Source: Massalongia carnosa (Eukaryota). From it: a stretch of 64,000 nucleotides of DNA. The stretch is taken from contig OZ287070.1 in the NCBI GenBank assembly GCA_965645245.1, positions 2,790,001-2,854,000 of the forward strand. The letters are read 5' to 3'. A program made the position numbers and the translations under genes. Shown one piece after another: positions 5,593-60,384 of this stretch (positions are counted from its first letter, which is position 1; each line of letters begins with the position of its first letter). The notes beneath the pieces were generated by a model, which saw only the letters and a program-made list of their open reading frames with translations, had not been told where the DNA came from and searched no databases.

Positions 5593-6620
5593 TGTCAGCC
5601 AGTTTAGTGGTCAAGCAGTAAGCGATATGTAGCTCGGATACGGTAATCTATTAACCGAATCCCAACATTCTAGTAACTGAGAGAATGGGTGCAAAATCCT
5701 TTCAATGCAAGCAATCATCACCTCAATTCCAAGTGTCAATTTCAAGTGTCTATCTAAAACGTAAATCATTCTCCAATCACCAAGAGCTTAGATCAATAAA
5801 TCAAGCTCAATAGTTATGAGCCCGGTTGGTCAGCAGTGTTCCGTACACGTTCCGCTACCCTCATTTGATAGATAGAAAGAAGCCTTCCTTCACGATAGCT
5901 TGGCGGAAGCTATTGTGTCGTAAGCCATGTCATCCTTCTTATTCATCACATCAGCCAGATACAACCACGAAGCAGATACGGGTCGAATAAGCAGACACAA
6001 GCCAGAGCCGACACGGGCCAGAGCAGAAACGAGCTGACATCGAGGGACAACGAGCGGGGACGTCAAGCGGAAACGAGTCGGACACGAAGCAGAAACGAGC
6101 CATAGAGCAGAAACGAGCGGGACACGAGACAGAAACGAGCGAGATGTCGGGCAGAAACGAGACGATTACGATAAAGAAGAAGATGACACCACATCGAGCC
6201 TACGAAGGAGACGATCAATCAAAAAGCCCTTCGTGCAGGCCAGCATTTATGGCTTAGCATCCACAAAGTAGCTACACTTCGGCCCCATCGAGGGGTTCTC
6301 ACTAGCTCAGCCTGCGAAGGAGATTCAATCAAACAATCTTCAGCAAAAAGCCCTTCGTACAGGCCAACAGCAAAAAGCCCTATCTGCTACGTCCGCGGTA
6401 GGCAAATGTCCATAGTACTCTTCCCATCCACCCACGAGGTCTACGAATGAGTGCTGGTTGTGGGTTTAATGAGGCTACAAAGCAGGACAACATCGTCAAG
6501 GAAGAAACTACACAGTCAAGGGATGCTCAATGTCAAGGTGACAGCGAGGCCGACAGCAAGGTCCTTCGCTCGAAGGGGTGTGTCAAAGTGGCCATTACTA
6601 AGCGAGCTCGGCCCTCAGCC
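5593..6620 (+). mobile_element. Non-coding Copia-type (TRIM/LARD-like) element, 5' LTR plus internal domain; 3' LTR not found
   Basis: TGTCAG start; LTR ~5593-5810 followed by PBS TAGTTATGAGCCCGG (5811-5825); no gag/pol; internal blocks homologous to the TRIM at 48595-49485. Confidence 0.7.
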
Positions 6621-6699
6621 TTGTCACTCTGTATATAGTCATCTCCCTTTTCTGTAGTAGCAAGCAAGGTCTTCGCCCATCATCATCTATCTGACAGAA

Positions 6700-6790
6700 T
6701 GCTATAAAAGCAGGTAGATAGCCCACATAGATAATTACCTTCAATGACAATCATGCTACTATACCTACAAAGTGAATTTATATTTCATAT
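6700..6790 (+). repeat. Fragment of the LTR family also seen as the solo LTR at 52804-53108 (opposite orientation)
   Basis: ATAGCCCACATAGATAATTACCTTCAATGACAA...CTACAAAGTGAATTTATATTTCATAT is the reverse complement of ~52810-52885. Confidence 0.75.
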
Positions 6791-6796
6791 TTTTTT

Positions 6797-25938: not shown

Positions 25939-25983
25939 GGTGTATGGAAAGGACTCCGCGATGGATAAGAATGGGGCGGTTAG

Positions 25984-39124: not shown

Positions 39125-42100
39125 ATGTCGGCATCGCCCAGAAAAATCGTCTTGGCAAAATCGGCCGACTGGAGAACATGGTTTTCCTTCATCCAGATAA
39201 AGGCAGAAAGTCTAGAAATTTGGGATGAGGTTAACCCGAATGAGCCATTTGAGGAGTCGTTAAAACGGCCAGAGATACCAAATTTTCCAATCTCGGAAAA
39301 TGATGATGATGAAGTTGAGGCAGGAAAGTATCAAATGCTTCAACTGAAAACTCAGCTATACAGATTAAAATGGGACGAATACAAAGTTCGAAAAGCAGCA
39401 CTAACTGAGCTGACATCCAACATTCTAGAAAGTCTGTCGACCGAAGACGGCGTTTATTTGGAAGACATAAACCGAAAAAGAGGACATCCATGGAAAATAC
39501 TGACGGCACTGAAGCAAAGAATTGCTCCATCTGATGCCGCCCAAATTCGGGACATTGAGACCAAATACGAGAAGCTCAAAAAGGGACCAGGAAATCAAAA
39601 TTTGGAGACATACATCGAGCAGTGGCAGAGGACATACACTGACGCCATCAATAATAAGCTTTTTTAGGCAGAGGGGCAACGAGCTCATCGACACTTTCTC
39701 ATGGCCATTCGGAAAAGGAGACTAACTTTGCCGATACCATGCTGATCAATCTAAATAGGGAGCCGGACATGGACTTCTATAAATTGCTGGAAGAATTCCG
39801 ACAATTCGTCCGGTATCAAAAAGCTGAAAAAGGGGAGTCCCATTCCGCCTTTTCTGCTAATTCCAACCAGTCTTCCTCATCTAATCAGGGACCTACATTC
39901 AATGGTCAGCGACCGGCTAGACCACCTTGCATTTGCGGCAAAGATCATGCCCTCGGTCATTGCTGGCACCTAGTGCCTGACCATCCCCGCCGACCGCACA
40001 ATTTCAAAACGAGTCCCGAAATCCAATCCCGAATCGATGACGCTATGAAGAATAAGGCATTCCGGGAGAAGGTGGAAAAATCCATACAAACCTGCAAAGA
40101 AAAAGCTAGGACTAGTCAGAATAATCAGGGGCAAAAGAATCAGGATCAGAAAGGGCAGAAAAATAACACGATACCGGAGGGTGGAAATGCCACCTTTGCA
40201 GCTTTTTGCAGCACTTCCTTTTCAGCGGCAAATAGCTTAGTCATCAAGGGGTCATGGATTCTAGATAATGGATCCAATCGGCACATTTGCAATGAGACCA
40301 TGAAATCGCGTATAGTGAAGACGCGAGATGCATCAAAAGATGACTATTTGGCAGCCGGTGCCAACTACCTAAAAATTGAATTCTACGGAACCATCAGAAT
40401 CAACATTCCTGCCCCATCTGGACCATGGATAATTACATTAGTCGACGTCGCCTACGTCCCTAGATTCATGACAAATGTCGTCGCTCAGTATTTATTCAAT
40501 GTAAAAGGGGTACACTTTGACGATTGGAAAATGCACCTGCATAGGGAAGGAAAGACTGTCGCATGGGTTAAACCACTAAATGGGCACTTCTTACTGGAAG
40601 ACAACACTGAGGGGGTGTTCAATCAGTCATTTGCAACAGGGCAAAATTCTGCTGCAGCTAAAGAGAAAGAAAATGCCAAATCTGCACCTTCCTATCAATG
40701 GCATCAGATGTTGGCACATGCGTCAAATGACGCCATTCAGCATTTACAGGCATCAGCTGAGGGGGTAAAGATTGCTGATTCAGCAGCTGCCCCTACAATT
40801 CCCAAAACCAATGAGTGCGAAACATACGCACTTTCAAAAATGCACCGAATCATCTCTAGGTCAGCGGAAAATGCCGAAACGGCAGCCCTACCTTTTCATC
40901 GAATCACATACGACTTAATCCCATTGAACCCTGCCTATAACAAAGATGAATGGGTCTCTCATTTCGCCTGCCATTGGACCGATTTTAACATGGTTTTTAC
41001 TCATCCAAAGAAATCAGATGCGACGCGGATAGTAAAAGAGGCACTTAATTTGATCGAGACTAGATTCAATGGAAAAGTAGTCTTCTTTCGGACTGACGGC
41101 GAGAAATCTTTGGGAGGTGATTTTCGAGAATTACTTATAGAAAAGGGGATTACTTACGAACCATCTGCACCTCATTCGCCGGAGCAGAATGGGCACTCAG
41201 AAAGAAAAGGGGGAATTTTGACCCTAAAAGCACGTGCTATGCGGATGGATGCAAATCTTCCTACATTTCTTTGGCCGGAAATTTTTCGGACTGCCGGCTA
41301 TATAGCAAATCGGACTCCTATGGGAAAACATCAATGGAAAACGCCATAACAGATGGTCCACAAGACCCGTCCAAACTTAGCACATTTACATGTTTATGGC
41401 TGCAAAGCTTATGCCTTAAATAAGAAAATTTCGAGGAAGGAAAAGTTGAAAGAAAGAGCTCACATCGGACATTTGGTTGATTATGATGCTCGCAACATTT
41501 TTCGCATTTGGATACCATCTCAGCGGAAGGTAATTCGGACTAGAGACGTTATTTTCGATGACAGCACTAGATACGATCCTCATGACATAGATGTCATGCA
41601 GGCAATTTCCGAGCCAATGCTGCCATTACCAGAGACGTTTGAAATTCCGAATCTTCTTACTGATTTGGCGCGAATTACCGAGGTGGAATCAGATTTAGAA
41701 GATGAGATAAATCTGCATGCGGAGCAAAACCAGCAATCTATAGAAAAAGGGCAAATGCCAGCATCTGGCAATTCCCCAAATGACTCCGCAAATGACTCCG
41801 CATCACATGACTCAGTAAAAGGCAAAACATTCGAATATTTGCCATCTCCCTTACCATCTGAAGCAACCCCGCCACCTGACCCTAAACCATCTCAAAAAGA
41901 GAAGAAAGTGATTGGTCTAGAATTGGACCAGGCAAATATCTTGCCTGAGGGGGTGAGACGGGAAAGAAAAGGCAGAAAACAGGCTTATTTCGCTGCCTTG
42001 AAAGATGCCGAAAATGGAGAAGTTATCTCCTTTAATTCCTCATTTGCAGCATTTGCAAAATCATCATTCTTTACTAAATTTTCTCAGCATCGCCTACATA

Positions 42101-43349
42101 GAGATTCCCTACCTGCGGAACCAAAGCATTTCGGTCAAATGCTGAAACATTCTCATTCCACCGGATTTCAGGAAGCAATCAAACCGGAAATAAAAGCTTT
42201 GGAAGTAAAGGGCACTTGGAAGGAAATTCCTACAAATGAGGTTATTTCGAAAGATAATGTCATCATTCCTACTATGTGGATTTTCAAATATAAATTCGAC
42301 GAAGAGGGATATTTGACCAAATACAAAGCTCGCTTAGTGGCTAGGGGTGATTTTCAGAAGACTGACCAAGACACCTACGCCGCCACTTTGGCAGCTCGCA
42401 TTTTCCGAGCATTAATGGCAATTGTAGCAACATTCGATTTGGAGACGCGACAGTATGACGCCATAAATGCATTTGCCAATAGTCCTATAGATGAGCCCAT
42501 CTATTGTAAGCCACCTGAGGGATGGCCAAAAGATAGCGGCATTTTGCTGCTTCTACAAAGGGCTCTGTATGGACTAAAACAATCTCCAGCCTTATGGTAT
42601 CGTCTTTATTCGGAAGCACTAATCGGAATGAATTTTGAGCCGATACCAGGAGCAGATTGTCTCTTCATCAGTCGGGACAAGCATTTGCTTCTTTTCTTCT
42701 TCGTAGATGACATCGTTCTTCTATACGATCGTCGTTGGACCAATCAAGCTGACGTTTTTCAGACGCAGCTATTTGACCGTTTTGAAATGCGACATTTAGG
42801 AGAATTAGAATGATTCCTAGGAATTCAGATCTCTAGGAAACGCGAAACCGGACTTTTATGGCTGTCTCAGCAGTCCTACATTGAAAAGATAATTTCAAAA
42901 TTCAATGTCAGCATTAATCTAGAAAATAAGGGACCGGCGACACCTTTACCATACGGATCAGGAATGCAATTGGTCAGAAATTCTGGTCGGGCAACAAATC
43001 AGGAAATCCATGCCTACCAGCAAAATAGTTGGATCCATCAATTTCGCCGCAGTAATAACCCGCCCGGACGTCGCATTTGCAGCTTCCAAACTGTCGGAAT
43101 TTCTAACCAACCCATCTAAATGCCATTCGGAAGCTGCCATTCGGACCCTGAAATATTTAGGGCATTCCAAAACATTGACCATTTGGTTTAACTCTTCTGA
43201 TTTTTTCGGAAACTCTGACCATTCTTCTTCTGACCAAACCATCTTTTTAGCAAGCAGCGACGCCTCATTTGCCGATGACCCCGCGACCAGATATAGTTCC
43301 CAGGGATACGGATTCAAGCTATTTAGTGGAATGATAGATTGGAAGGCGT
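39125..43349 (+). pseudogene. Copia-2 Gag-Pol, 5' part (stops at 39665, 41347, 42811; frameshift ~42960)
   Basis: CICGKDHALGHC, WILDNGSNRHIC, WHQMLAH, FRTDGE, PEQNGHSER, YKARLVARGD, FFVDDIV, SDASFADD...MIDWKA. Confidence 0.93.
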
Positions 43350-43754
43350 TGTGGAAGGAGGAACTGGGTGGTGTGCGTGGTCCACTACTGCTAGGAGTGC
43401 AAGAGAACAAACAAACAAGAGAAGAACAGAACAATAGAATAAGAGCAATAGCTAGACTGATCACTGTAAGTCTCGCGCCTCGTGCCTGATGCCTCGTGCC
43501 TGTGAACTGTATGTGTTGATGCTATGTGTTGTAGCTATTGCTACGAGCATGCTTGCTCTAAAAGGAAAAGAACTATCTATAACTAAACTAAAAGAAAACT
43601 GTCACCTGACTTCCCCGCTACTTTTACCGAGTATCAGCCGAAAAGAACCAACTCCCGAACCGCTAGCAATTTGAATTTAGAGTATCACCGCTCCACCCCC
43701 CTACATAGTTCCCCTCTCTCTTTAGGTGTCGACCCCTGACACCTATCACTGTTC

Positions 43755-44270
43755 CTACTCCAGCGTTCGCTTCATTCCGGCCTCAGCAAACACTAACTCC
43801 TCCTCATCCAGCTCGGGTCCCGGAGTCGTATCACTGTCATCAGAGATGTGAGGAATAGGCCTGCCATGTGACTCTCGCTTTAACCGAAAAGATGACCTAG
43901 TCCCAAAGTCCTCTTCCTCTGCTTTCTTCACATGCTGAAACATAATAATGGCCTCCTTTAGTGTCCGATTCCTCCATTCTCCAACTGCCCGTGACAGTTG
44001 GGCCATATCCACCTCCTCAATAACATCTTCTCGTTGAGCTTTGAACTCTTCTTCTTTCATCACCGAGGCCCAGGCATCATTCTGTATGACATAGTCATAA
44101 TAGTCCACTATGCTATCCCCTAGCATATGCTGGAACTCTATTAGCTGCGATTCTATGGTCCTCTGTCCCTCGTATCGGTCTGCTGGGGTCAATGTCTCAA
44201 GAAAAGCTAGTGCGTCTGTCATGTGGTGGAAGCGGTCATTTCCTAGGACAATGACTAATTGGAAAGACAT
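43755..44270 (-). CDS. Gypsy-2 additional ORF3 (171 aa, acidic, unknown function) between pol and the PPT
   Basis: ATG-initiated open frame, same strand as pol, ending ~30 bp before the PPT; no known motif recognised. Confidence 0.55.
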   Translation of the reverse strand: MSFQLVIVLGNDRFHHMTDALAFLETLTPADRYEGQRTIESQLIEFQHMLGDSIVDYYDYVIQNDAWASVMKEEEFKAQREDVIEEVDMAQLSRAVGEWRNRTLKEAIIMFQHVKKAEEEDFGTRSSFRLKRESHGRPIPHISDDSDTTPGPELDEEELVFAEAGMKRTLE

Positions 44271-44627
44271 GCCAAAAGATGTAAGGCAAGTAAGGTAAGA
44301 TAAATTGTTCCAAGTTATCGAGTAGCTTGCTGACTTTCGCTTAGATAAGAAGTTGAGCTTAGCAGAGATGTTTGCTGATAGGAAGATAGTATATGTGCTG
44401 ATCAGGTAGGTAGTAAAAGCTAGATAATTTGCTGAGTTCTGGTAGTATGGAAAAGGTAAAACATGGAGGTGAGGATTCGGAAGATGGCAATTTCGACTAA
44501 GGTTGGTGAAGTTTTCGGTGAATTTTGGTAAGTCTGAAATGAAACTATTCCGAAGGTTCGTGTGCTTCCTCCGCTGACAATATGCATTTTACTAAGGAAA
44601 TTCGTTCGATATAGGTAGTCGGATATG

Positions 44628-47600
44628 TCAATTTTCTACCGTCTCCATCGCATCAGCACGTCTGCTAGGAATCACTACTGCCATTGGCCAGCCAGGTGGA
44701 ATCATGGACTGTCGGTCGTCCTCGTCCCCCCCATGGTTTATAGTCGGCCCCTGACTATTACGTTGCTCAGGTTCTTCTATCGGAGGTAAGTTAATATTTT
44801 GCCGAGCATGAAATGGTTTCAGTCGATTTCCTGCAAAGGTTCCAGCTAATAGGGTGCCGTCTAGTTCACATAGTTTGTAAGTTCCCTTATCAACAATTGT
44901 TTGTTGAATTTTATATGGTCCTAACCACCTGAAAGTTAGTTTGCCTGTGTGCTGATTGTCTAATTTAGTGTCGTGCAAAAGAATTAATTGACCCTCGGTG
45001 AGTTCAATTGATCTCAGATTGTTCAGAGTGTCAAAGGTCTCTTTGCCTTCCATTCTTTGTCTTTGCAGGAATAAAGCTGTCTCTTCCATGTCTTCATCCC
45101 TTCGCTGTATTTGTCTCGCACGCATAGCTAGCAATTCGTCTGTTGTATGAACTTCATTCCATGGTAATATTCTCCATGTTGGAATTTCCAGTTCAATTGG
45201 TAGAACAGCCTCATTGCCGCTATTCAGATAGAAAGGTGTGTTGCCGGTGCTAGCACGAACTGTTGTCCGGTCGGCCCATAGTACTGCAGGAAGATTATCA
45301 ACCCATTTGCCCATGCCTCCATTTGTCATTTTGGATAATGCTTGAACAACTGGCCGATGTCCCCGTTCTATCATGCCATTGGCTTGCGGATGATAGGCAG
45401 AAACAACTACTCTTTTGATACCATATCGATTTGCTAATTCGATAACAGCATCTTTGTTTTCTGGTCCACCATCAAAAATCAGTTTTCCGAAGCACCCATG
45501 TCTGCATATAACGTCTTCCCACAAGAATCTCGCGACATTCTGAGCGGTAGCTTTTCCTAGTGCTCTACCCTCGACCCATCCGGAAAAGTCATCTTTGGCC
45601 ATAACAATATAGTGCTTGCCTCGACAAGCTGGCATGTGTACCACGTCTAAGCCAACCTTCTGCCACATGAAGGTAACCCATGTCGGATGAAGTGCTTCCT
45701 CGAGCCTAGTGGGGTCACGTTTCTGACATTCCTCGCAGGACCGAACATAGCCTTTTACATCATCGTGCAATTGTTCCCACCAGTACCTGTCTGCTATGCG
45801 TCTGTATGTGCCCTCTCTGCCTCTATGTCCACTTTCGTCATGTAGCTGTTTCAATATTTCCAACTTCCGCTCATCAGAGTCTATCACTCGCCTGGAAGGT
45901 ACGTTCTTGCTGTTTCGTCTATAAAGATGGCCATCTTGTACTCGATAGCGCAAGGCCTCGCTCTTAAACGCCCTAAAGTCTTTGGGGTTTAGTCCAACCG
46001 GCTTTTGTAGTGATGTTAGAAATGCAGCGATTCTCTCGGACTTATCACTATATCCGGCCTTTAGCACTTTTTCGTCTGGCACCTCGTCTGCGGAGTTAAC
46101 GGAAATTGGACAGGCCCTTAGTGAATTCAGTTCGGCATCTATGAAGTCGTCTATGTCTTGCTCCTGCTGTTCGGCCCGAATTTCTTCCTCAGTATGAGGT
46201 CGTCTAGACAGTCCATCTGCTGCCGTATGTTTTCGGCCAGCAACATGTTTGACCTCGAAGTCAAACAGTCGTATCCATGCTATCCATCGGACTATCAGAG
46301 CACCAGGCAAATCGGTACAAGCTCCATTCAATTGCGCCACTAGGACGTTGGCATCTGTCTCCAACACAAAGTGAACTCCATATAGCCAGTGCCTTGTCTT
46401 TTTCAATGCCTTTAGAACGCCTCGACACTCTCGCTTGGTTGCATCATATCGCTGTTCCACCTCGCTCCATACTCCGCTTTCGTACCGAATGGGGTGACGC
46501 TTGCCATCAAAGATTTGCATCAGTACAGCGCCCCATCCTTTCAAACTCGCATCCACAGCCAATATTGTTGTAATGTGCAAAGTCACCCGGCTGATGCCTA
46601 GTAAAGTGTTCAGAGTCACATAGTACCGCATTGGGATTAGTGCGTTGGTAAGAACATTAGGCAACACATAACGACCTCGAGAAGCACCGCAAAACTTCTA
46701 TGAACATTCCCATCGAGTCATAAATTGGATATGAGTCAATCACCAATCTTAGATTTCTAGGAAGCAGGAAGGTGAGTCATAGGGAGAACGGTTTTCGGCA
46801 TGTTTTTCTATCTATATAAACACGGTCCTTAGATAGGTAGATAAAAAAATCAATCGTTTCAAAAGTGAGCTTTTTACTATGCCAGCAGAGCTTCAATTAC
46901 AATAAATATGATAAGTCCAGCTAGCTCGCTATAGTCAATGGTCTTTAGTGCTGGCGGAGATGTCAGAGCTATCTTCAGCAAGTCCATTGCCTCGGTTTGT
47001 TCCATGCCCCATACAAAAGCAGTATCTTTCTTCAGCAGACGATATATTGGTTCAGCAACAATGGCAAAGTCCAATATCCATATGCGATAGTACACACACA
47101 CACCTATAAAAGCACGAGCGGAAGAAGCGTCGGTGCATATCGGCCACTCTAGAATTTTGATAACCTTAGCGGTGTCCGGATGTCTACCATCGGAGTCGGT
47201 CACAAATCCTACTATCTTCAGACCGGCCATGCAAAATTGCGACTTTTCTCCGGAGATAGTGCATCCAGCCCTTTCTATGTCCGCGAGTACCCCATCTAGC
47301 CACATGAGATGTTCAAGCACGTACTTTCTGATGCCCGGTGCCACTTCTTCACCACCATAATCAGTCTTCGGCCCCTTCACTCCGATGTCATCAAGGAAAG
47401 GTTTAGCACGGTTCGGAATGTGGTCCTGCAGTATCTTTGTCACTACCCGTACGAACTGTGCAACCGAATTGGTAGCTCCCATTGGTATAGATGTCATTCG
47501 CAATAGTCCTATTGGTGTCATGAAGGCGGTCATGTCTCGACTATGAACATCGAGTTCCATTTGGTTATATCCTGAAAACAAGTCGATCAAGGAAGCGATG

Positions 47601-48550
47601 TGGCAGCCAGCAAAGTCCTCTGAGAATTCGTCTACCGAAGGTGGCAGATTTGCGTCTCGGATGGTCACTTTGTTCATGTCTAGGGCCGCATTAATTAATC
47701 GGTACTTATTTTTCTCTTTCTTCTTCACTATGAACCATGGATTTCGATAGGGACCATGACAAGGTTCCAACGTTCCTCGCTGCAGTCGGTCCTTCAGCAT
47801 CTCTATCACCATCGGTACCAGGGCCCTTGGCAATGGGAATGATGGGGTCTGCCATGCCTCATGTGGAATGGTGTTGATTTTACATGGTGGAGACACCTCA
47901 GGTTTGACTCTGCCCATCTCGGAAAACTCCCATGACAGCGCTGCTTCTCGGTTGTATAACATCTGGGTCAACACTTCTTTCTCAGCAGACGTCATACTGT
48001 CGCCCACTGTCATTCGCTGCAGCCGTTCCGGTGTCAATCGTGAACCTTTGAATATTGTCGAGAACTTTGGAATCAGCCAATCAGGAAACTTTTCTGACTT
48101 TGGTAGACCTCTCTCTTTCTCTAGCGCCTTCGCTTTCCAATCTGCCATTCCACCAGGTATGGTGCCATCCGACTGGTCAGAATTCACTGGTCGAACTTTT
48201 ACCGCTTTCCGCTTATACGCCGTGTCAACTCTCACCGTACTCCGCTTGCCGAACACTCTGTTTTGATTGATTGTATATATGTCGAATTTTCGAGAGAACC
48301 TTAGAGAGGAAAGTCCGACCGAGCCAATTGAACGCGACGGTGTAAAGGCGCGAATATAGTGATCCATCGCTGCCACTTCCGCAATAGTCGCTGAGGGAGT
48401 TAGGGCTATTTGATTTAACAGGCCGGGCCTGTTAAATGGAACGGAAGAACCACTTTCCGGAAGTCCCACCCTAACACTCGCTCTCTCCAGGTTTTTACCA
48501 CCACTACCAACCATGGACCTGTTCTGCACATGGTGGTTGGTCAGTTTAAA
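44628..48550 (-). pseudogene. pol: Gypsy-2 Pol: RT, RNase H, integrase; interrupted by solo LTR 46566-46904
   Basis: LIDLFSGYNQ, PMGATNS, FLDDIGV, LAVDASLKGWG, HTAADGLSR, LHDESGHRG...CEECQ, GLDVVHM, FDGGPEN, GMIERGH, WLGPY. Confidence 0.95.
46566..46904. mobile_element. Solo LTR (339 bp) in Gypsy-2 pol
   Basis: TGTTGTAAT...ATTACAATA ends; TSD AATAT at 46561-46565 and 46905-46909; pol frame restored on removal. Confidence 0.9.
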
Positions 48551-51500
48551 TTCTCCTCTCGGCCCTCCGGAAACAGGTCCTCTGCAGTACGATTTGTTAA
48601 ATGAACAGTTGACGGCATAATGTTGAAATTACTACGGAGATGACTGCTTATAGCAGTCATGGCAGCCTGCAGGGCTGAGCTAGATCTAATGGGGCTAAGC
48701 GAGTATTCCAACACTCCCCTTCGAGCGTGGCTCCCCTTTCGCCTCCAAAATTGAAACTATCCAGCTTTTATCACTCCCCTTGCGAAGTGATTCATCCAGC
48801 TGTATCCGATTCGCTCCCCTTGCGGAACGAATCTAGCTCCCTCTGACTCCATTTTCCCTAAGCACGTAGTTCTTTCTTATGTCTTTTGTTGTCCTGCTTT
48901 GTAGCCTCATTAAACCCATAACCATCTCTCGAAACGTAGCTTTTGTGAGTGTATGGGTGGATGGGAAGAGTACTATGGACGTGTTTTGTTGATGGCCTGA
49001 GCAGGGCTTTTCTCGATGTCTCTGTTAGACATTTTCCCGCAGACCATTGACGTTGGTGGCCTGATCGCAGGGCTTTTATCTCCCCTTGCTGATCTGACCA
49101 GTAATGCAAGATGTGAAGTCTTCGAGGCACCGCCCATTGTAGATGTCCTCCTCAGCACGTTTCGTACGTACACCACTTTCGATGACGTTTCCGCTTCGTT
49201 TCCGCTTCGTTTCTCATCCCTTTCGATGTCGTTTCCGCTTCGTTTTCGCGCTTTCCACGTCTGAACTTTCACCTCATCATCTTCTTGATACGACATGATA
49301 GTACGTAGTCTATGCATGAAGGATGCCGTCGGAGGGGCGCAAAGCACAAACCCGGGACTCATAACCTGTTAAATAAACAGTTGACGGCATAATGTTGAAA
49401 TTACTACGGAGATGACTGCTTATAGCAGTCATGGCAGCCTGCAGGGCTGAGCTAGATCTAATGGGGCTAAGCGAGTATTCCAACACGATTTTTACTAGTT
49501 GAGTCAGAAGTTGCGGTGAATTTGGCAGCTCGGTTTCCCTCCTCCGCATGTATAGTACATTCCACCTCGTTATTCTGATAATCCATATCGACACGCATCT
49601 GATGAAGGTAAGGTTGGCCCAACACTAATTGATGATCCGCAGCGTCGATGACAAATATGTGATTGACCGACACTATTCCGCCAATATTAACCTCAACGTC
49701 CTCACATACACCTAGGAATTCTTTCCGGTCTCCAGTATGAGAAATAAGATTGATATTGGGACAGGGTCGCATAGCTAGGCCTTCACGCTTGGCCACGTTG
49801 TACGTCATCACATTCACTTCAGCGCCGGAGTCTAGGAGAGACTTGTACCTGTTGCCATCGCCGATCTGCACTTTGGCCTTTGGTGTCGACCTCGTGTAGG
49901 CCCTGCGAAGTCGCGGGTCCCGAATGCCAATTGAACTAATTTTTACCGTTGGACCCTCTGCCTTTTCCGGTTCGGCATTCCGTGTCATCTTATTGACCAC
50001 CGGTTTAAACATAGGCATCATGGCCATCAGATTTCCATAGGTCAGTCCTCCAGCACCAGGCAAAGGTATTTGCAAACAACGACTCTGTATTAGGTCTATG
50101 TTGAACTCATGTTTCGCGATCCGTAGAAACTCTTCGGTGCCCATCTGTTCTATCGCAGACCGAACCTCCTTTCGGATGGGGCCTGTCGGAACCCCGACCC
50201 CATGTTTCTTTCCTTTGCCGCCGCCGCTGCTGCTGCGGAGGTGGCTAGCTGGGCCCGCCTCCGTCATGGTCACATCTTCTTCCAAAGGGTCGGCGAATGT
50301 AACACGAGGTTCAGTCGCATGAGATTTATCAGTTACAATTGAGCTAGGTGGCCTTGATTGGTCAGAGTTGTCACTCCGACGTTCTACCGAGGCAGGAACC
50401 GGGTTCCAACTGCCATATCTGGGTGCTTTCGGTACTGCGAACTTGTCCTCGCGTTCAGCCCTGCGTTTCAGAATTCGCTTAGCTGGCTCCCTCCAGCTCT
50501 CCTCGACAGGCTTCTGTTGTTCCGTTCTAGCTGAATTGACAGAGGTGGTGTCGATGATGGTCACCTCAGGGTCCCATTCTTCATCAGATGAATATTCGTC
50601 CGCGCTATCCTCGCCAATTCGAACTGAGTGGACATCAGCACTTTGGTCCGCATGACTGAATTGATTGGCCAGCATTTTTGCGCGCCTAATGGACTCCTTC
50701 TGTGTCACCCCGGGCACATGCCGAATGGGATTGGAATATGTGCCCATCGGTCCTAGACATAACAAACCTCGCTCATTCAGATGAATAACACCATTCCGCT
50801 GGTCGGCATCAAACTCCGGGCAGTTCCTCCGCCTATCATGGGTCTCCTTCTCTCCACAGTATGTGCAGGAATCCTCCCCTCCATACTGACGGTCATTCGG
50901 TTTCTGGCCATCATAAGGTGCCTGTCTACCAGGTGACTGTGAACGGTTCCGAGTCTGCTGACTGTTCTGATTGGCTGGACGGGCCTGAGTTCCCGCCATC
51001 AGGACCAGCGCATCAAACCTTTCGGTTAAACCGGCAATAGCCTTCTCCGTGGACTTCGACAAACTAACGGTCGAACTGTCTGCAACTGGTGGGGTAAGTG
51101 ACTTCATGATATTTTCATGACCATCCAGCACTATCTTCCTATCAAATTGATCGGCTAGGGCACTATATTTGTCAGTAACACTCTTCTCAGTCCGCATCAC
51201 CTCTTTATATTTGAGCCTCGCCTCCACTAGTCCCAATGTCTTCTTCACCAATCCATCAAAGTCCTTCATCACATTATCGTCAAAATCAACACCTCGGCGG
51301 AAGAACAACTCCTCGCGTACGTCCTTGGGAAGGCCCTGTAGGAACCACTGATTGCGTGTATAAATATCTAGCTTTTCCTGACCAATTAGGACTTTGGATA
51401 TGGCCCCGAACTTTCGGCAAAAGTTTCGCACGTCATCTTCACTAGTACGTTCCTTGTCCTTGTATGACTCCAAAAACGCTCGAGAATTCACCTGCTGAAT

Positions 51501-52253
51501 ACTATCACCAGCCTTATACTCCTTCTTCATCACCTTACATAGCTGAGCCCATCTTCTTTCCACAAAGTCAGGTAGTGACTCCACCGTCTGTCCAATTAGC
51601 ATGTCACAATAGCGGGGTAACCTACGAATCTTTTCATTGTTCCCGACGTGGTAGTCTTCGCACATGTCTTCATACCTACTCAAGAACTCCGACACATTTT
51701 TACCTTGAAAGAATGGGGTCCCGGGAGTCCCTGGCTGAGGCATGGTCATCACAAACCCGAAGGGCCCTGCAGACATAGCAGGTCTATTCCCAGAGTACTC
51801 GGGACTAGTCGTAGATGGAGTAGCCATGTCGCTGATTGTTGCACCACTAGACTGATTTTCGCTTGTAGATATGGTAGCCGACGATGAACTCTCACACTCA
51901 GGTCGAGTCGGTGGGCTAGTTCGGACAGCAGTCTCAGTAGCAGGTTCAGTATGCTTGCAGGTAGTAGTAGCAAGTCGCTCAAGTATAGGTAGGAGGTGTG
52001 TAACGATTTTCGAAAGAAGAGCTGTTGTTGTTTCCTTGTCCTCTCTATTCGACTGACAACAGTAGTGATGACAGTGCGGGCTAGTAGGATGAATGTATGG
52101 TGGAGGTAGGTCCGAAGGCCTGTTATGCTGATATGCTTTGTGCTCGACACTGTCTGAACAGGATGAATAAGGTGAAAAAGATGGATGAAATGATCTGTTG
52201 AAGATGGGCAGTGAGGCAGCTTTTATGCCTCCTCGGTGCCGTTCGGTCGCCAT
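48541..52253 (-). pseudogene. gag: Gypsy-2 ORF1: Gag + aspartic protease, interrupted near its end by the TRIM
   Basis: PFFQGKNVSEFLSRYEDMC, CTYCGEKETHDRRRNC, LLDSGAEVNVM, LVLGQPY; after TRIM removal ends ...SKNRTAEDLFPEGREENLN*. Confidence 0.9.
48595..49485 (-). mobile_element. Complete TRIM (891 bp, non-autonomous Copia-type) with 119-bp LTRs
   Basis: LTRs 48595-48713 and 49367-49485 (one visible mismatch); TSD CGATT at 48590-48594 and 49486-49490; PBS GGTTATGAGTCCCGGG; PPT AAGGGGAG; no gag/pol. Confidence 0.95.
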
Positions 52254-52689
52254 GGTCTCGATTCCGGATGGCCTTCGAGCAGGAATGCGGTACTTTCCGA
52301 ACCCTATGTTTCTGGTGGGTCCTTCTGTTCACATTGTCAAATCGACGTCGTCGCTCAGTCCTCGAGGCTGCTCGCTTATTCTCACGATCTTCTCAAACAG
52401 GATTAGCTTGCCACCGAGACGGAATTCGAGCTCGCTGATTGGTTCGGGTCAAATCGGCCACCTATCTCCCGCCTATCGGAATCGTGATGTCGCTACGTTA
52501 GACTCTCGACCGTCTCCACCGTGTCGCAGACTATTCGAGTCCGTCTCTTCCCCTATAATCAATTCCGCCCGTTCAGGTGAGGTCTGTTCGCATCGCCACC
52601 CTCTGTCAGGGTCAAATTGATGCCCCCGTTCTTTCTGTCTTCCTCCGGTCGCTGTATGTCGTTTTCCCACTATCTCTAGATCTCTGTAC

Positions 52690-52790
52690 GCTGTCGCTGC
52701 TTCTAGATCGCTGTTTCCTGTCGCTGTCGCCTGTCGCTATTTCCTGTCGCTGTTTCCTGTCGCTGTCGCCTGTCGCTGTCGCTGTCGCTG
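52690..52790. repeat. (CTGTCG)n-type simple repeat in the Gypsy-2 leader
   Basis: Degenerate CGCTGT/CCTGT tandem units. Confidence 0.8.
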
Positions 52791-52803
52791 TAAGTCTACT
52801 GTC

Positions 52804-53108
52804 TGTCTCATATGAAATATAAATTCACTTTGTAGGTATAGTAGCATGTTTGTCATTGAAGGTAATTATCTATGTGGGCTATTTGTCTGCTTTATATAGC
52901 AGTTACAAAACAGTCACATCTAGGAGGTCAGACCTTGTCCCCCTGACGGTCAGACCTTGTCCTCCTGACGGTCAGACCTTGTCCCCCTGACGGTCAGACC
53001 TTGTCTCCCATCTCTGCTTGTTTAGGCACTTTGCAAGGCACTTTCCGAGGCTCATGATGGATGCCCATGATGATGGTGGCCTCATCATCTAACATCCAAC
53101 ATCTCACA
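52804..53108. mobile_element. Solo LTR (305 bp) in the Gypsy-2 5' leader, with 22-bp tandem repeat GGTCAGACCTTGTCCCCCTGAC
   Basis: TG...CA ends; TSD TGTC at 52800-52803 and 53109-53112; related fragments at 6700-6790 and 7950-8030. Confidence 0.8.
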
Positions 53109-53519
53109 TGTCTATCTAGACTCGTCGTTTGATTCCTGCTCCCGGTCAAATAGAGATCGCACCGTGGTCGCCAAATATGGAAGGAGGAAATGGGTGGTGT
53201 GCGTGGTCCACTACTGCTAGGAGTGCAAGAGAACAAACAAACAAGAGAAGAACAGAACAATAGAATAAGAAAAATAGCTAGACTGATCACTGTAAGCCTC
53301 GCGCCTCGTGCCTGATGCCTCGTGCCTGTGAACTGTATGTGTTGTAGCTATTGCTACGAGTATGCTTGCTCTAAAAGGAAAAGAACTATCTATAACTAAA
53401 CTAAAAGAAAGACTGTCACCTGACTTCCCCGCTACCTTTACCGAGTATCAGCCGAAAAGAACCAACTCCCGAACCGCTAGCAATTTGAATTTAGAGTATC
53501 ACCGCTCCACCCCCCTACA

Positions 53520-53909
53520 GCGTCAAAGCAGAAGACGGTCACCACTAGCAGTACGGAAGCGGAATTGCTCGCCATCTCATCGGCAGGAAAGGAGCTCATC
53601 TGGTGGACGCGTCTTTTTCAAGAGATAAATCTAGATTTGCAGATGACGCCAAACATTCAACGCGACAATCGGCAGACAATCAGAGCACTGACGGAAAATA
53701 AACTGGTGACCAAGCTTCGCCATGTCGATATTCATAAACAATGGCTCCGCCAAGAAATTGCAAAGGATCGAATCAAAATTCAATGGGTGCACACTGCCAC
53801 AATTATGGCAGATGGATTGACGAAGGCATTGCCGCCTCAAAAGCATGCTTCATTTGTCAAATTACTAGGCCTGAAAGGGCAACATCATGAAGATATAAAA
53901 GACGGATGA
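53520..53909 (+). pseudogene. Copia-2 RNase H C-terminus
   Basis: Resumes (WK)ASKQKTVTTSSTEAELLA...LRHVDI...MADGLTKAL after Gypsy-2. Confidence 0.93.
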
Positions 53910-54082
53910 TAAAGATCATTGCAGATGATCTTCATCAAGGGGGTGTGTCAAATGTCAGCTATACTGGCATTAACCAACATTGGTCAACGGGCCCGTCACA
54001 TGCCCGTCACATGACATTGCCACCGCGGCACAGGTAAAAATTCTTCATACCGCACATTCTTTCTTCCTTTAGAGACATCTCT

Positions 54083-54611
54083 TATAAGAGGGATAGTAGA
54101 CACTAGTCCTTATGGGTTATAATGCTCAGTGTGACTGCTAATAGATTGGTAGGTGCTAAAGCTAAAAGCTGATTCCCTGAAGATGGGAATCGAGCTTTCT
54201 ATATACCCCTTGGGGTCCTATTTACTAACTACTTGTCTGGTTACCTGTCTGCCTTGTTGCCTTCAGCTGAGGTCTAGCAGATAGCCTTGCTGCCTTCAGC
54301 TGAGGTCTAGCAGATAACCTTGTTGCCTTCAGCTGAGGTCTAGCAGATAGCCTTGTTGCCTTCAGCTGAGGTCTAGCAGATAGCCTTGTTGCCTTTAGCT
54401 GAGGTCTCCTAGGCGTCCCAGGCCTCCCATGAGATCGAGGCTTATCTGAATAGCTTCAGTTGCTGCCTAACAAACTGGTAAGGCTGATTGCTGATGGCTT
54501 AGTATTGCTATCCGCCTTATCATGACTAAGCATCCGGATTATCAGTCACCCGGTCTTCTTGGGTGAGTCATCCCAGGAGCTAGCGCAGTCCTGTATTGCC
54601 GCGCTATTACA
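54083..54611. mobile_element. Solo LTR (529 bp) in the Copia-2 3' LTR, with 33-bp tandem repeat x~5 (54251-54407)
   Basis: TATAA (for TGTAA)...TTACA ends; TSD TCTCT at 54078-54082 and 54612-54616; absent from the 5' LTR; unit GCCTTGTTGCCTTCAGCTGAGGTCTAGCAGATA. Confidence 0.88.
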
Positions 54612-54693
54612 TCTCTTGATCTATCCCCTGGCGGCATACCTAGCTAGAAAATCATCTATAGATCAATGCAATTCATTTCACCTCATCTGGTCA

Positions 54694-54990
54694 TGTAATA
54701 GGGTAGGCCTAGTATGCGTTCGTTGAACGTAAGACTAGCCTATGTGACTATGTGGGATACGTACAGCCAAAACAACCACCAAGACAATAAGGTCCCGCCT
54801 AACCCAGTTAGGCATAGTGTGGGGACTTAACTTATTATGGAGGTGTTTTCGTAGTACACGAAGTATCCCCTCGCTTCGCCTCACCTCCCCTAGCTCACCT
54901 GCCTAGTCTTATCTACCCGTGTCTTTCGGTGTCCGAAGTATTTCGGAGTCCGAAAATACTAGGTAGTATGGGCAAGGTATGGAAGAAGAG
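54694..54990. repeat. Truncated LTR-like segment
   Basis: Starts TGTAATA exactly where the Copia-2 3' LTR breaks off; no closing end found. Confidence 0.5.
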
Positions 54991-55239
54991 TGTCAGGCGA
55001 TTAGGGGTCACATGACCCGCCATGGGTCACATGACCCACGAACCCCTATGAGATATCCCTCAGTTAGCTAGCCTAGACCTCCCATAGATCAATACACACC
55101 ACTCCTTTTCACTCATATTCCACATTAGCCCATACAGCTTGATAGTTATGAGCCCGGAGAGAATGGAAGCTTTAATTCCTACTCATTGATCTAGTTGAAT
55201 AAAACCCTCTTCCCAAAACGATCCAACAAATCGATCAAA

Positions 55240-58200
55240 ATGGAGGAGACCAACAAAGCAACGATGATCACCCTAACTCCCAAGAATTATCATCTATGGA
55301 TTAGGGAATTACAAGGAATATCCGAGAAAGCGAAGGTATGGCAATATGTGGACCCCAATGGTTCAAAACCGGAGCCCGAAGAGGGAGAATATCCGGAAGT
55401 TTCACAATATCAAGTCCCTATTCAAGCACAGCCAGCAGGTGGAATTGTGTCGATATTAATAGACCGTGGTTCAAGCCAATTCCCGAACTAAGATCCTGTT
55501 GAAGGAAAAGCACGTGATTTCGGACTAATAACCGAGGCTTCGATCTTTTAGATGCTATTTCTTTCTATGCCATATATCTGATTTCTAATACTCAATGATT
55601 TCAAAGCATTGTACCTCGCATGCGTTCCGGATCACTAATGATTTATTAGTAAATAGAAGTGGCTGGAAGATATCTAGATTATCAAAGAATGTGGCGAAAT
55701 GGTCTATATAGCTAGCTAGAATTTCCAGTTTAGATAGACAAGGAGAACATCATTTTCCAGATCAATAAGAACGGTCCGACAAATTGCTTACCTCATTATA
55801 GAAGGTAGTGTTGTAATAGCCACCAAATCGGCTGAGAAATACGGCGATTTATCGGCTGAGCAAAAGGAGGACTATAAAATGGAGATATCAGCCTATAAGA
55901 TGAAGGAAAAACAGGTGGAGAAGGTCGCCCAAGGACTCAGAATAGTGGACAATGCACTAAAGAGCTCCGCACGAGCATACATCCCCCCCAATAAGATGGC
56001 TTCATCGGTTAGGGAAATAGTGAAAATTCTGGCTGCAAGATATAAGCGGTCAGATGACCAAGTCATAGAGCAATTGCATGAGCAATTTCTAGCCCTAAAA
56101 ACCCCGCCTATTAAAGGTAAAATAGAGGCATGGGTAGCTGATTGGGAGAATATTAAGGGACAAATTGTAGAGCTCAATGTAACGGGCCTATTTGGCTCCG
56201 AGACCATATTCATCAATGAATTTCTCCAATCAGGGAAGAAATGGGCGCCCAATTTCTGTGAAAACTGGGTAATGCAGCATAGGGCTGCTAAGACGACGGT
56301 TGAATTTTACGAGACAACCAGGGAATATCGTTTAGCCGTGGAATCATTCCTGAATGAGGCACAATCAACGTCTAGAAATCAAGCTAATGCAGCCTCGCTT
56401 CAGGGGCAAATGCAAGACGAAAATAAAGGTCCGGGGCCTAGCCAATCAAGTCAATAGAATGGTCAATCAAAAGAGGCCAGATTCAAGGATAGAAAGTGCG
56501 TATGTGGGAAAATACACCTGTTTAGGCTATGCCCATATATCGTCAAATCAGCTCGCCCCCCTGTATGGAAGGAAGATAAAACCGTACGCAATGAAATGCG
56601 TCAGAAAATTCAGTCAAACATTCGGTTTTTCATGGCCATTAAGAAGGTCACCGATACCAACATACTAGACGGAATAACTGAGGAGTCAGTCAAAAAGAGC
56701 TCCCAAAAAGCAGAGAATAATCAACATAATCAGGGCAATCACATTGAATCGCCTGATCAATCCTTCTCGTTTGCGAACGTTACATCTAGGGCAAATAACC
56801 CCTTGCATAAAAGCGTCATATTTGACTCCGGATGCGATAACCCTCTGACCTATGATAAATCACGGTTTATAGGAGAAATAACCCCAACTTCGTCAGACAT
56901 GTGAGTGGACACCCCCGACGGGGAGATGAAAATCCATTGTCATGGCACAATGAGGGTAAATGGCCTATTGAATGGCCAGAAAAGGGAGCTATTATTCGAA
57001 GGAACAGCTTATATTCCTGATTCATCATTGACGTTGGTTTCGGCCAATAAGTTGAAAAAACGAGGCTTTTTCTGGGATATGTTCACTGATACCCTTATAG
57101 TTAAGGAGACAGGGCAACAAATATGTGAAATAAAGGAGCACTATGGGCTCTCAATCATAGAATATAACCCTGAATCCATAGATATAGGGTTTGCTAACTC
57201 AGTGCAGCCACGCGATACGTCAAAAGCAACTCCATGGAAATGGCATCTTCGGCTCGGTCATTGCCGGCCAGAGGTGATTGACCAGCTAAAGAAGATCGAT
57301 GAAGTGACAGTTTCAAAAGGCGTAGGGGGTGAAAACGCACCTAGGACCATTCAATGCGAAACGTGTGCAGTCTCCAAAATGCATAGAGTCATCAATAAAG
57401 CTCCGTCAGGGCGTGCCATCAAGCCATATCAGGTGCTTCATTTTGACCTAAACATCAATGATAAGGGGTTCGATGGAACGAGCTGTATAGCTCATTTTAC
57501 GGACGAATTTACCTCATATGTATGTGTTTATCCATTGAATGATCATAAGGAAAAGACCCTATTGCCCATCTTCAAAAGCTTGATTAATCAATGCGATAGA
57601 GCTGGCATTTCCATTAATTCAATGGTAACCACGATTCGCACGGGGCAAGAAACATCAATAGGAAAAGCCCTAGAAGCATGGATCAGTCAGCAAGGCATAG
57701 AATGGTCATGGTCAGCAAAGAATACCCCTGAGCAAAATGGCGTTTCGGAGCGTTTCGGAGCCCTATTAACTGAAAAAGCTCGATGCATCAGGGAATATGC
57801 AAAAATGCCAGAAGACCTGTATCCGGAGTGCTATTTAGCTGCAGCCCATCTGATGAATCGAACCCCTAATAAAGCTCTGGAATGGGACTCCCCATTGGTC
57901 AAATTGCAGAAACTGACCAATCCGGGTCAATCAGTCAGATACGAGCTGGCTCATCTAAAAGTGTTTGGTTGCAAGGCGTATCCATTGCTAAAAGGGGCCG
58001 ATGCTCCTCCCAAAAGCAATAAGTTGAAACCTAGGGCATTTGTTGGCTATTTGGTTGGCTATGATTCAACCAATATCTTCAGGATATGGAATCCAGAAAA
58101 GGGAGATGTCAGCGGTTATAGAGACGTCATATTCAACGAAGATGAGCTTTATAGCGCCTATACGTCGAATAAGGAGCTATTGCTAAAGGAGACTGAAAAA

Positions 58201-60384
58201 GCGAGCTTTATAGAGTTTCATGTAGTTGAACCACGCCCGGCATTTCAGGAGATAGATAGTGAGGAAGAAGAATGGCTAGACTTATCAGTCAATAAGCGTA
58301 TAGAGCAATTGACCATAGAAGATAACTCACCTAGTCAGGACGAAATACAGGAGAAAATAACTCCCTCATCAACGCCCATGCAACTGGAAACGCCAATAGA
58401 AACACCTGAACCAGATATCAGCCCTAATGTCTCCATAGATAAAAGAAGGGCCAAAAAGGTGAGGGCATCAACAATTGACCCTCCACAACTCCCGCAAACG
58501 GGCCGAACGCCCCTCAATGTGACGGAAATAGAGCAATCATCAGGAAAAAGGAGCGATAGGATAAATGAGGCAAACGTTATGGAGGGAAAACGTACTAGGA
58601 AACCAAACCCTAGATACGCTGCAAATGGAGCTTGGTCAGCAGAAGAAATGTCGAAATTCCCTCAATTTCATACAGCGTTTATGGCGGGGACGGCGAGAAT
58701 GACTAATCAGCTCCGAACTGATGATTTGCCCGACCCCCCATCTCATTGGCGAGCTCTGCTAAGGCATCCCTATGCAGATGAGTTCATGAAAGCAGCTAAC
58801 GTTGAATGGGAGGCACTTTTCCACAAAGAAACATGGGAAATAGTTGATCAAGATGAGGCTATACAGCCAATATTGCCCCTCAAAGGGGTTTTCACCTATA
58901 AGACTGATTCGGACGGCTATTTGGCAAAGTTCAAAGCACGTCTAGTGGTTAGAGGTGACCTACAGCAAGATAATGCTCAAGATGTTTATGCAGCTACATT
59001 AGCCTTCAAGGTGTTTAGGGCATTAATGGTATTAGTTGCTGCATTCGGGCTGAAAACGAGGCAGTTGGACGCTATTAACGCCTTTCTAAACGCTCACAAT
59101 GACGAGCCTATTTACTGCTTTTTGCCTGATGGTTTTAAGCTTAGAAAGAAGGTGCTAAAAGTGAAAAAAGCGCTATATGGTCAAAGAAAATCACCCCTTC
59201 TATGGCTACGAATGTTAATAGGCAAATGCATAGAACTAGGTTTAAAACAGGTGCCAGGCGAACCATGCCTATTCTATACGGAGGGAATCATACTATTCTT
59301 CTATGTGGACGACATAGTAATGGCGTATCGGCCCGAAAAAGAAGCCGAAGTCGAGGAATATGTGCAACGTTTCATGAAGATGATCGAAATACGGGATATG
59401 GGTCCATTAACCTATTTTCTAGGCGTACGGGTCATTCATAACATAGAAGAAAAGACGATCCACTTGATTCAGGACTCCTATATGAACAAATTAGCCAAGG
59501 AGTATGACATAGATGAAAAGTCGGAGGCTAAAACACCTCTAACGCCCATATTCAATGAAGAACTGGCGCCATATGAGGGGGAGGTTGATCCGGCCAGAAT
59601 GCATCTATATAGGAAGAAAGTTGGATCAATATGCTACCCAGCTATTATGACTCGGCCAGATATAGCAAAATCAGCTTCAAAATTAGCTGAATATCTGACC
59701 ATCCCGGGACCTAGTCATATGAGGGCTGTAGACCATTGCCTACGTTATCTATATGGGACGAAATATCTGGGAATCCAGTACTCGGCCAAAGGGGGCGGTG
59801 AAATCACTACTATGGCAAATCATGGACCGGTTCCGGCTAATAAGCAGGTTTTTGAGGCAACGGCTGATGCATCCTATGCAAATAACCCAGATAGGAAAAG
59901 CTCCGAGGGCTATACATTCAAGCTATTTGGTGGGATGATTGACTGGGCCGCTAGGAAGCAACTGACCGTGACCACGTCAACCACTGAGGCCGAGTTATTG
60001 TCTATGCTTCATGCGGGTAAAGAGCTCATATGGTGGATACATCTATTTGAAAAGCTACAATTTAACCCGGATTAAGATATAGTTATCTATAACGATAACC
60101 TACAGACAATTCGCATTTTAACCTCCGAAATGGGAAAAACTGATACTAAATTGAGGCATATAGACGTCGCCCAATGCTGGCTTAGGCAATCTGTGCAAAG
60201 GGGGGAATTATGTGTTGACTATGTGCCGACCAATCAGATGGTCGCAGATGGTTTAACCAAGATCCTACCTCCTCAAAAGCATCAAAATTTCGTCAAGCTA
60301 TTAGGGCTAGTCAATGCCATGGACCTGGTCAACAATCAGAAGAAATTGGCCAATCAGAAGAAGGGAAATACGGCCACAAATTGA
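55240..60384 (+). pseudogene. Copia-3 Gag-Pol, single frame broken by a solo LTR and stops at 56455, 56902, 60073
   Basis: CVCGKIHLFRLCPY, IFDSGC, WHLRLGH, PEQNGVSER, FKARLVVRGD, FYVDDIV, ADASYAN, LRHIDV, VADGLTK. Confidence 0.94.
55448..55781. mobile_element. Solo LTR (334 bp) in Copia-3 gag
   Basis: TGTCG...CGACA ends; TSD AATTG at 55443-55447 and 55782-55786; gag frame restored on removal. Confidence 0.92.

Follow-up and report, generated by a model that had tools for sequence, protein, structure and literature searches.

Why should two miniature retrotransposons with different ends and largely diverged interiors keep one short internal sequence almost unchanged? The question is raised by a 64,000-nucleotide (nt) stretch of the genome of Massalongia carnosa (GenBank assembly GCA_965645245.1, contig OZ287070.1, positions 2,790,001 to 2,854,000), hereafter the window, to which all coordinates refer. 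Its minus strand carries a terminal-repeat retrotransposon in miniature (TRIM) and its plus strand a non-autonomous relative, here called element 2, and the interiors of both contain a two-part block of 27 and 37 nt around a variable spacer. We class the TRIM as Copia dependent and propose, tentatively and at somewhat less than even confidence, that its block is a constrained cis-acting RNA signal for mobilization in trans.

A first-pass annotation had described a complete 891-bp TRIM at 48595-49485, and this description is borne out by a pair of long terminal repeats (LTRs), a target-site duplication (TSD), a primer-binding site (PBS), a polypurine tract (PPT), and a contig of the empty site. 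The borders were read base by base, and the parts are as follows.

48595..49485, minus strand: complete TRIM (LTR pair, sequence reading, empty-site contig)
49367..49485, minus strand: 5′ LTR, 119 nt, TGTTGG...TTTAACA (repeat search and base reading)
48595..48713, minus strand: 3′ LTR, 119 nt, identical to the 5′ LTR at 118 of 119 positions (repeat search and base reading)
49486..49490, minus strand: TSD AATCG, upstream copy (sequence; contig joint)
48590..48594, minus strand: TSD AATCG, downstream copy (sequence; contig joint)
49351..49366, minus strand: PBS GGTTATGAGTCCCGGG, tRNA-iMet anticodon-loop type, adjoining the 5′ LTR (motif search)
48714..48722, minus strand: PPT GAAGGGGAG, directly before the 3′ LTR (sequence reading)

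Everything by which a TRIM is recognized is therefore present: short LTRs with TG..CA termini, a small noncoding interior, a PBS and a PPT, and a 5-bp duplication (AATCG on each side) together with evidence of insertion. A direct-repeat search paired 48595-48714 with 49367-49486 at 99% identity, reporting 120 nt instead of 119 because one flanking G matches as well. The interior comprises 653 nt, and its longest open reading frame (ORF), of 131 aa, belongs to no Pfam family; the equivalent frame in element 2 is interrupted by stops. A single 1620-nt contig from public run X1 joins 48588 to 49485 and skips 896 nt, equal to 891 + 5, which identifies it as the empty site and proves the insertion. 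A 710-nt contig from run X6 spans the whole TRIM interior with seven differences and one gap, and contigs with differing flanks end at the TRIM LTR borders in runs X1, X2, and X6. Words of the TRIM were found in 10 public runs from seven studies, one of them labeled as a lichen metagenome, although contig depths in these runs were not taken as copy numbers; the small share in run X7 consists of 153 nt of the GAAACGA-repeat region only, without the block. A spurious ORF starting near the PBS recurs as a protein cluster (P0006) of 19 member sequences at 97% identity, and more distant variants of the TRIM ORF are represented by P0007 (76%) and P0008. The TRIM is a real fungal LTR retrotransposon in miniature, recently mobile and present in multiple copies.

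Three autonomous Copia elements in the window are candidate helpers.

~31084-36571: Copia A, autonomous
5′ LTR from 38718, 3′ LTR region 53944-54693: Copia B, autonomous, split by a Gypsy element
~54990-60641: Copia C, autonomous

The motif TTATGAGYCCSGG, with at most one mismatch allowed, occurs exactly five times in the 64 kb against 0.23 expected, and the five sites lie directly 3′ of the 5′ LTR in Copia A, Copia B, Copia C, the TRIM, and element 2. Across the LTR end and PBS the TRIM matches Copia A at 24 of 26 positions, and its PBS, TSD length, and LTR termini are all common to autonomous Copia elements. Anticodon-loop tRNA-iMet primer-binding sites and 5-bp TSDs are described for fungal TRIMs and Copia in section 3.6 of Kojima 2024 (PMC10886601). 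Given the Copia-type PBS, the match to Copia A, and this published precedent, the TRIM was classed as Copia dependent, and its PBS, PPT, TG..CA ends, and 5-bp duplication indicate that Copia Gag, reverse transcriptase (RT), and integrase would copy it in trans. At the level of sequence there is thus a solid case for a young, multi-copy, Copia-dependent element without coding capacity of its own, for which we infer mobilization by a helper.

Element 2 has the following parts.

5593..6796, plus strand: element 2, non-autonomous relative without a matched LTR pair
5812..5826, plus strand: element 2 PBS AGTTATGAGCCCGGT
6572..6580, plus strand: element 2 PPT GAAGGGGTG
6581..6796, plus strand: element 2 3′ LTR, starting TGTCAAAG

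The interiors of the TRIM and element 2 contain three modules in the same order, just as the first-pass annotation had reported: tandem repeats, paired AAAAGCCCT units, and the two-part block.

49186..49249, minus strand: GAAACGA-type 11-nt tandem repeats of the TRIM, 5.8 copies
5990-6161, plus strand: GAAACGA-type tandem repeats of element 2
49057..49077, minus strand: unit AAAAGCCCT-N-CAGGCCA, TRIM copy 1 (motif search)
48993..49011, minus strand: unit AAAAGCCCT-N-CAGGCCA, TRIM copy 2 (motif search)
48954..48980, minus strand: conserved block 1, 27 nt, 27/27 identical to 6408-6434
48925..48953, minus strand: variable spacer, 29 nt (20 nt in element 2), about half identical
48888..48924, minus strand: conserved block 2, 37 nt, 36/37 identical to 6455-6491
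6408..6491, plus strand: element 2 block 1 (6408-6434), spacer (6435-6454), and block 2 (6455-6491)

The AAAAGCCCT-N-CAGGCCA unit occurs four times in the whole window, twice in each element. Exact matches to block 1 are confined to 48954-48980 (minus strand) and 6408-6434 (plus strand), two against none expected, and the core of block 2 matches at 48891-48917 (minus strand) and 6462-6488 (plus strand); no further copy of either block was detected in the window at up to three mismatches. When the TRIM was compared with the rest of the window by blastn, 6408-6492 was the sole match. The block lies 166-266 nt upstream of the TRIM 3′ LTR, in 3′ halves that are otherwise diverged (240 of 491 columns identical in a global alignment with element 2), and the islands of identity are the units, the block, 12 of 12 positions of CGCTCGAAGGGG at the PPT and, separately, the PBS. 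An nhmmer profile built from both copies recovered, at significant E values, just these copies in the window; the third match (21856-21900) had an E value of 3.1. Searches for the two-block pattern returned two loci from public metagenomes, both chance matches without similarity beyond the pattern, and 0 and 0 from viral contigs and likewise 0 and 0 from prokaryote genome contigs. An X1 contig with spacer deletions of 1 and 8 nt was considered as an independent copy and set aside, since it is probably the element 2 locus itself.

A further lineage was found through translation. Sense frame 2 is the only one of the six frames that is open through both block copies, and its 97-aa translation was searched by phmmer against 1.84 billion representative proteins. 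Four proteins matched at E ≤ 0.001; P0001, P0002, and P0004 were rejected as repeat-rich proteins matching outside the block, and only P0003 (231 aa, E = 2.6e-4, from the assembly of a public run) covers it, the match being exactly the block region. P0003 runs from a AAAAGCCCT unit (KPFVQASITGLAS, compare element 2) across the block and the PPT into an element 2-like LTR (SKGCVSKHTWPLSSELSP); given this continuation past the PPT, it is a spurious ORF over a third element and not a real protein. In the three-way alignment of the TRIM, element 2, and P0003, VHSTLP.H and G.GFNEATKQD are invariant and the spacer differs again. The substitutions in P0003, two at the inner end of block 1 (I to V and P to S) and one immediately beyond block 2 (N to S), require no fewer than three nucleotide changes. 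A fourth element is represented by P0005, which ends ...YTRP-stop at a TAG within block 1. Thus, the claim of the first-pass annotation that near-identical blocks surround a diverged spacer holds not only for the pair on which it was made but also for P0003.

The same annotation had placed the shared interior of element 2 behind a different LTR, and the ends of the two elements are indeed different; the matched LTR pair that this implies is missing, however, the 5′ region of element 2 not matching its own 3′ LTR (z 1.1). Nor are the LTRs of the two elements unrelated, as had been stated: the TRIM LTR and the element 2 3′ LTR align locally with a score of 37 against 19.7 ± 3.4 for shuffles (maximum 31, z 5.1). 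At its other end, the 5713-5890 portion of element 2 aligns with Copia B (38890-39044) across the leader, the PBS, and the end of the LTR; the score is 38 (z 4.1), and the best shuffle reached 36. The element 2 3′ LTR is 95% identical, over its final 92 nt, to part of a solo LTR (52810-52901). Copia A is the element that the ends of the TRIM resemble; for the 5′ end of element 2 it is Copia B. With a Copia B-like 5′ end and a 3′ LTR akin to that of the TRIM, element 2 marks the family as modular and chimeric, with distantly related LTRs: it is a family of non-autonomous elements that swaps LTRs and leaders with different Copia lineages and retains short internal modules. The solo LTR itself (52810-53100, minus strand) lies in the 5′ leader of a Gypsy element, apparently with TGAGA on both sides; its upstream part is unlike that of element 2 and holds four tandem units of ~23 nt (GGGGGACAAGGTCTGACCGTCAG-like), and the comparison of the two LTRs looks like a swap of the upstream part with the downstream part kept.

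On either side of the block the TRIM RNA is predicted to fold well. The unit region 48985-49100 has a z score of −3.35 and the region 48705-48850 one of −4.52, with none of 200 shuffles as good in either case, and a further hairpin spans the PPT/LTR junction. These flanking folds are not common to element 2, where the corresponding regions score +0.75 and −1.77. Within the block, a small candidate hairpin closes the variable spacer.

48766..48838, minus strand: two tandem 8-10-bp hairpins with loop GCAAGG, each with a PPT-like AAGGGGAG (z −3.93 and −4.42; 0/200 shuffles as good for each)
48914..48958, minus strand: candidate small hairpin, ACCCAUA (48952-48958) with UAUGGGU (48914-48920), around the spacer (RNAalifold consensus)

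In element 2 the corresponding 7-bp helix is ACCCACG/UGUGGGU, with one compensatory change (U-A to C-G) and one from A-U to G-U, and the residues of P0003, judged from the translation, are compatible with it (C to U opposite G). No partner for the block was found among the LTRs, the 5′ leaders, and the Copia RNAs: 30 of 300 shuffles paired as well with the TRIM LTR, and 94 and 39 of 300 with the LTRs of element 2; among the 5′ leaders none stood out, with one nominal match (7/300) in element 2 only; and among the sense RNAs of Copia A, B, and C the best pairing, block 2 with Copia A (3/60), was not significant over eight tests. The tandem hairpins at 48766-48838, upstream of the true PPT, have stems that differ from one another by two-sided changes that preserve pairing, and one variant TRIM contig in run X2 carries 19 other letters in place of 48785-48843.

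Our favored reading is that the two-part block would be the most constrained module of the family and would act as a recognition sequence on the genomic RNA of the element, its role most likely being capture or dimerization for packaging into Copia particles. It would be exposed, for the most part unpaired, between the two strongly folded domains, with at most a small helix of 6-7 bp formed by the inner block ends, closing the variable spacer as a loop. That two blocks are kept around a free spacer in three lineages argues against chance and against a simple recombination tract, and the recurrence of this pattern in P0003 is why we prefer selection as the explanation of the conservation; the selected sequence would act as RNA. 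Of the proposal in the first-pass annotation that a selected RNA element defines a family of parasitic retroelements, the parts that stand are that the block looks selected and that it marks a Copia-dependent family; identification as a ribozyme or as a member of a known RNA family does not.

Several observations weigh against this reading. The block occurs in none of the 5′ or 3′ untranslated regions of the three autonomous Copias in the window (best z ~2.6, below the shuffle maximum), which is unexpected if it mimics the helper's own packaging signal. Its conservation is read from two DNA copies and one translated copy. It is better conserved than the PBS, which could mean recent exchange and not old constraint. 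Folding the TRIM at full length does not produce the 7-bp helix (0.08 expected pairs between block 1 and block 2), and the lone compensatory change would be compatible with pairing by accident at an estimated ~1 in 4. Candidate helpers without the block leave room for a parasite-specific function in, for example, export, stability, or transcription, for a helper lineage outside the window, and for a young patch.

A further reading has a low probability: the block would be a parasite-specific hijacking signal, a small hairpin with conserved single-stranded shoulders, lying between folded domains, that evolved in the non-autonomous lineage and was not inherited from the helper.

A parasite-specific benefit could also be obtained at another level. 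The block may be a DNA-level or host-factor site, for example an internal promoter, a site for a transcription factor, an enhancer or insulator, or an element for RNA stability or export; serving only the parasite, it would be absent from helper Copias, as it is from all three in the window. The context of the block, conserved in sequence and weakly folded, suits such a site as well, and there are precedents for TRIM-specific acquired modules, including 5S- and tRNA-derived RNA polymerase III promoters in TRIMs, in the sections of PMC10886601 drawn on here. ARAGORN, however, finds no tRNA-like gene in the window, no Rfam small-RNA family was found, and by eye the blocks do not suit the A-box and B-box consensus. 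We regard this explanation as unlikely.

Alternatively, near-identity might reflect youth. The block would then be a recent functionless patch, moved between co-packaged RNAs by template switching or gene conversion, and the modular family provides material for this view: in element 2 a 5′ end like that of Copia B is combined with a 3′ LTR like that of the TRIM, the near-identical last 92 nt of that 3′ LTR and of the solo LTR at 52810-53100 adjoin upstream parts that differ, and conservation is higher in the block (63/64) than in the PBS. A transferred tract should, however, carry its spacer along, yet the spacers differ in length and are only about half identical, and in P0003 the blocks are kept while the spacer has changed again. 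The other islands of identity, moreover, are known cis sites, namely the PBS and the 12/12 PPT region. A recent patch is accordingly, in our estimate, distinctly improbable.

The explanation put forward in the first-pass annotation, that the blocks pair into a long bulged stem (GTCC/GGAC and further short pairings) and form a selected structured RNA, whether a packaging or dimerization hairpin or an unknown ribozyme, fares worse, and we consider it highly doubtful. The layout of two blocks around a variable spacer is that of a stem with a free loop, an outer GUCC/GGAC helix appears in both local minimum-energy folds, and RNAalifold applied to the two copies gives an 18-pair consensus with one compensatory and one one-sided change, the sole variable base of block 2 (A/G) standing opposite the first spacer base (U/C) so that the pair is kept. 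The energy of this consensus is just −14.98 kcal/mol, however, and the pairing is not stronger than chance. The local fold of the block has a z score of −0.64 in both copies (48 and 50 of 200 shuffles as good), with minimum-energy structures that differ between the TRIM and element 2, and the duplex energies of −16.5 (TRIM) and −17.6 kcal/mol (element 2), against shuffle means of −14.2 and −14.8, were equaled by 57/300 and 44/300 shuffles. In full-length partition-function folds the blocks pair elsewhere, the expected number of block 1-block 2 pairs in element 2 being 4.1 (against the far lower TRIM value given above). The Rfam search that the annotation had proposed gave nothing in the window at gathering score, and even at E ≤ 10 the block itself was not matched; across the TRIM and element 2 at E ≤ 10 it returned weak snoRNA-like noise only, off the block, and no hammerhead or other ribozyme was found. 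Beyond the pairs being drawable, there is no support for a long bulged stem or a ribozyme.

Finally, a coding block, as a relic or used piece of a protein in sense frame 2 (VHSTLPIHP...GYGFNEATKQDN), has next to no chance of being correct: the uniquely open frame and a 9-nt difference in spacer length, a multiple of three, would fit, but an in-frame difference arises by accident in 1 of 3 cases, a start codon with a conserved ORF upstream is missing from both copies, a stop immediately precedes the block in element 2, the TRIM frame-2 ORF lacks a Met, that ORF has no similar-length protein match and no Pfam family, no Copia polyprotein or other real protein among the 1.84 billion representatives matches the block (P0003 not being one), tblastx against the Copia and Gypsy genes of the window gave no block match at E < 0.01, so that the blocks are not the Copia coding fragments against which the first-pass annotation had cautioned, and the AAAAGCCCT units fall in three different frames, which with the missing protein matches makes a coding origin very unlikely.

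The TRIM sits in a nest of transposons three deep (38718-54693), in which it has entered a Gypsy element and the Gypsy element has entered the RNase H region of Copia B.

43352..53519, minus strand: host Gypsy element, interrupted between its protease and RT by the TRIM

The LTRs of the host Gypsy (43352-43705 and 53178-53519) are 97% identical, and the TRIM has the same orientation as its host. Run X1 contains, over 48300-48560 and 49600-49800, a second Gypsy copy whose differences from the host Gypsy are mostly of two kinds, C>T (30) and G>A (22), among 109 variant places in that run; this excess is in the direction expected of repeat-induced point mutation in fungi. The 3′ LTR region of Copia B is interrupted, the pairs 38718-38857/53944-54083 and 38849-38933/54609-54693 lying 525 nt further apart on the right. 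Copia A has LTRs that are 100% identical over 262 nt (31153-31414 and 36310-36571), its 5′ LTR being without the first 69 nt of the 3′ LTR. The Copia A ORFs for gag-protease-integrase (31453-33867) and for RT (33868-36060) share a frame, with one stop codon between them. The region 3′ of element 2 is a mosaic of LTR fragments: a Copia A-type LTR piece at 6797-6973 (92% identical to 36241-36416) is followed ~700 nt further on by a 62% match to the rest of such an LTR (7657-7918), and 7924-8034 resembles the start of the solo LTR (53093-52985, 83%). Elsewhere in the window, DNA transposon fragments at 913-1740 and 14651-15829 carry a hAT dimerization domain (E = 2.8e-7) and a DDE_1 endonuclease (E = 3.1e-18). 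The interval 22623-27506 contains the perfect direct repeats 22811-23110/27207-27506 (300 nt, 100%) and 22623-22771/23166-23314 (149 nt, 100%), which enclose an RT/RNase H ORF (24367-25983), and probably represents a further LTR element of very recent origin, part of whose LTR is duplicated.

Compared with TRIMs generally, the element has the same short LTRs (119 nt), a length below 1 kb, a PBS, a PPT, a TSD, no coding capacity, and presumed mobilization in trans; nothing essential differs, and the present family is fungal with a Copia-type anticodon-loop PBS. The fungal Helenus TRIMs and Copia-9_PGr/LTR-1_PTrit, as presented in the relevant sections of Kojima 2024 (PMC10886601), have the same PBS type, 5-bp TSDs, and inferred Copia helpers, and internal regions common to elements with dissimilar LTRs are also documented there. 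In that work the defining feature of Helenus is a tRNA-like LTR sequence, whereas none was found in the TRIM (ARAGORN, 0 genes in the window; Rfam, 0 at gathering score), and the shared interior of Copia-9_PGr/LTR-1_PTrit comes from an autonomous Copia, whereas the present block is absent from the Copias of the window. Cassandra, with its 5S-derived LTR module, and the retrozymes, with LTR hammerhead ribozymes, are likewise non-autonomous LTR elements with an extra RNA module, but their modules lie in the LTR and the present block is internal. No 5S, hammerhead, or other Rfam family was detected in the window at gathering score, nor 5S or hammerhead in either element at E ≤ 10. Assignment of the TRIM to Helenus/TRIMp3, Cassandra, or the retrozymes was therefore rejected for want of a tRNA-like, 5S, or hammerhead match.

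Retroviruses and Ty1 offer a functional parallel. Their cis-acting RNA signals include packaging and dimerization sites, 5′-3′ cyclization sequences, and 3′ transport elements, short conserved untranslated sequences indispensable to non-autonomous derivatives. The packaging signals known so far are located in the 5′ leader and occur in the helper as well, whereas the present block is near the 3′ LTR and absent from the candidate helpers.

TRIMs, fungal Copia-dependent TRIMs with such a PBS, and shared interiors with dissimilar LTRs are already in print (PMC10886601). Literature searches on fungal TRIMs, non-autonomous LTR retrotransposons of lichens, and packaging signals of non-autonomous LTR elements brought up no account of the block, although it could still be present in repeat libraries. 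Were it a young recombination patch, the locus would be an ordinary region of nested transposons. How non-autonomous LTR elements are packaged and copied by helpers that share neither their LTRs nor their interiors is poorly understood. The 64 near-invariant bases, kept amid surroundings that have been replaced or are diverging, LTRs included, are a compact candidate for a signal serving this purpose in fungi. If the hijacking interpretation is true, the signal would let miniature elements with different LTRs and leaders enter Copia particles, or pair with a helper RNA that lacks the block.

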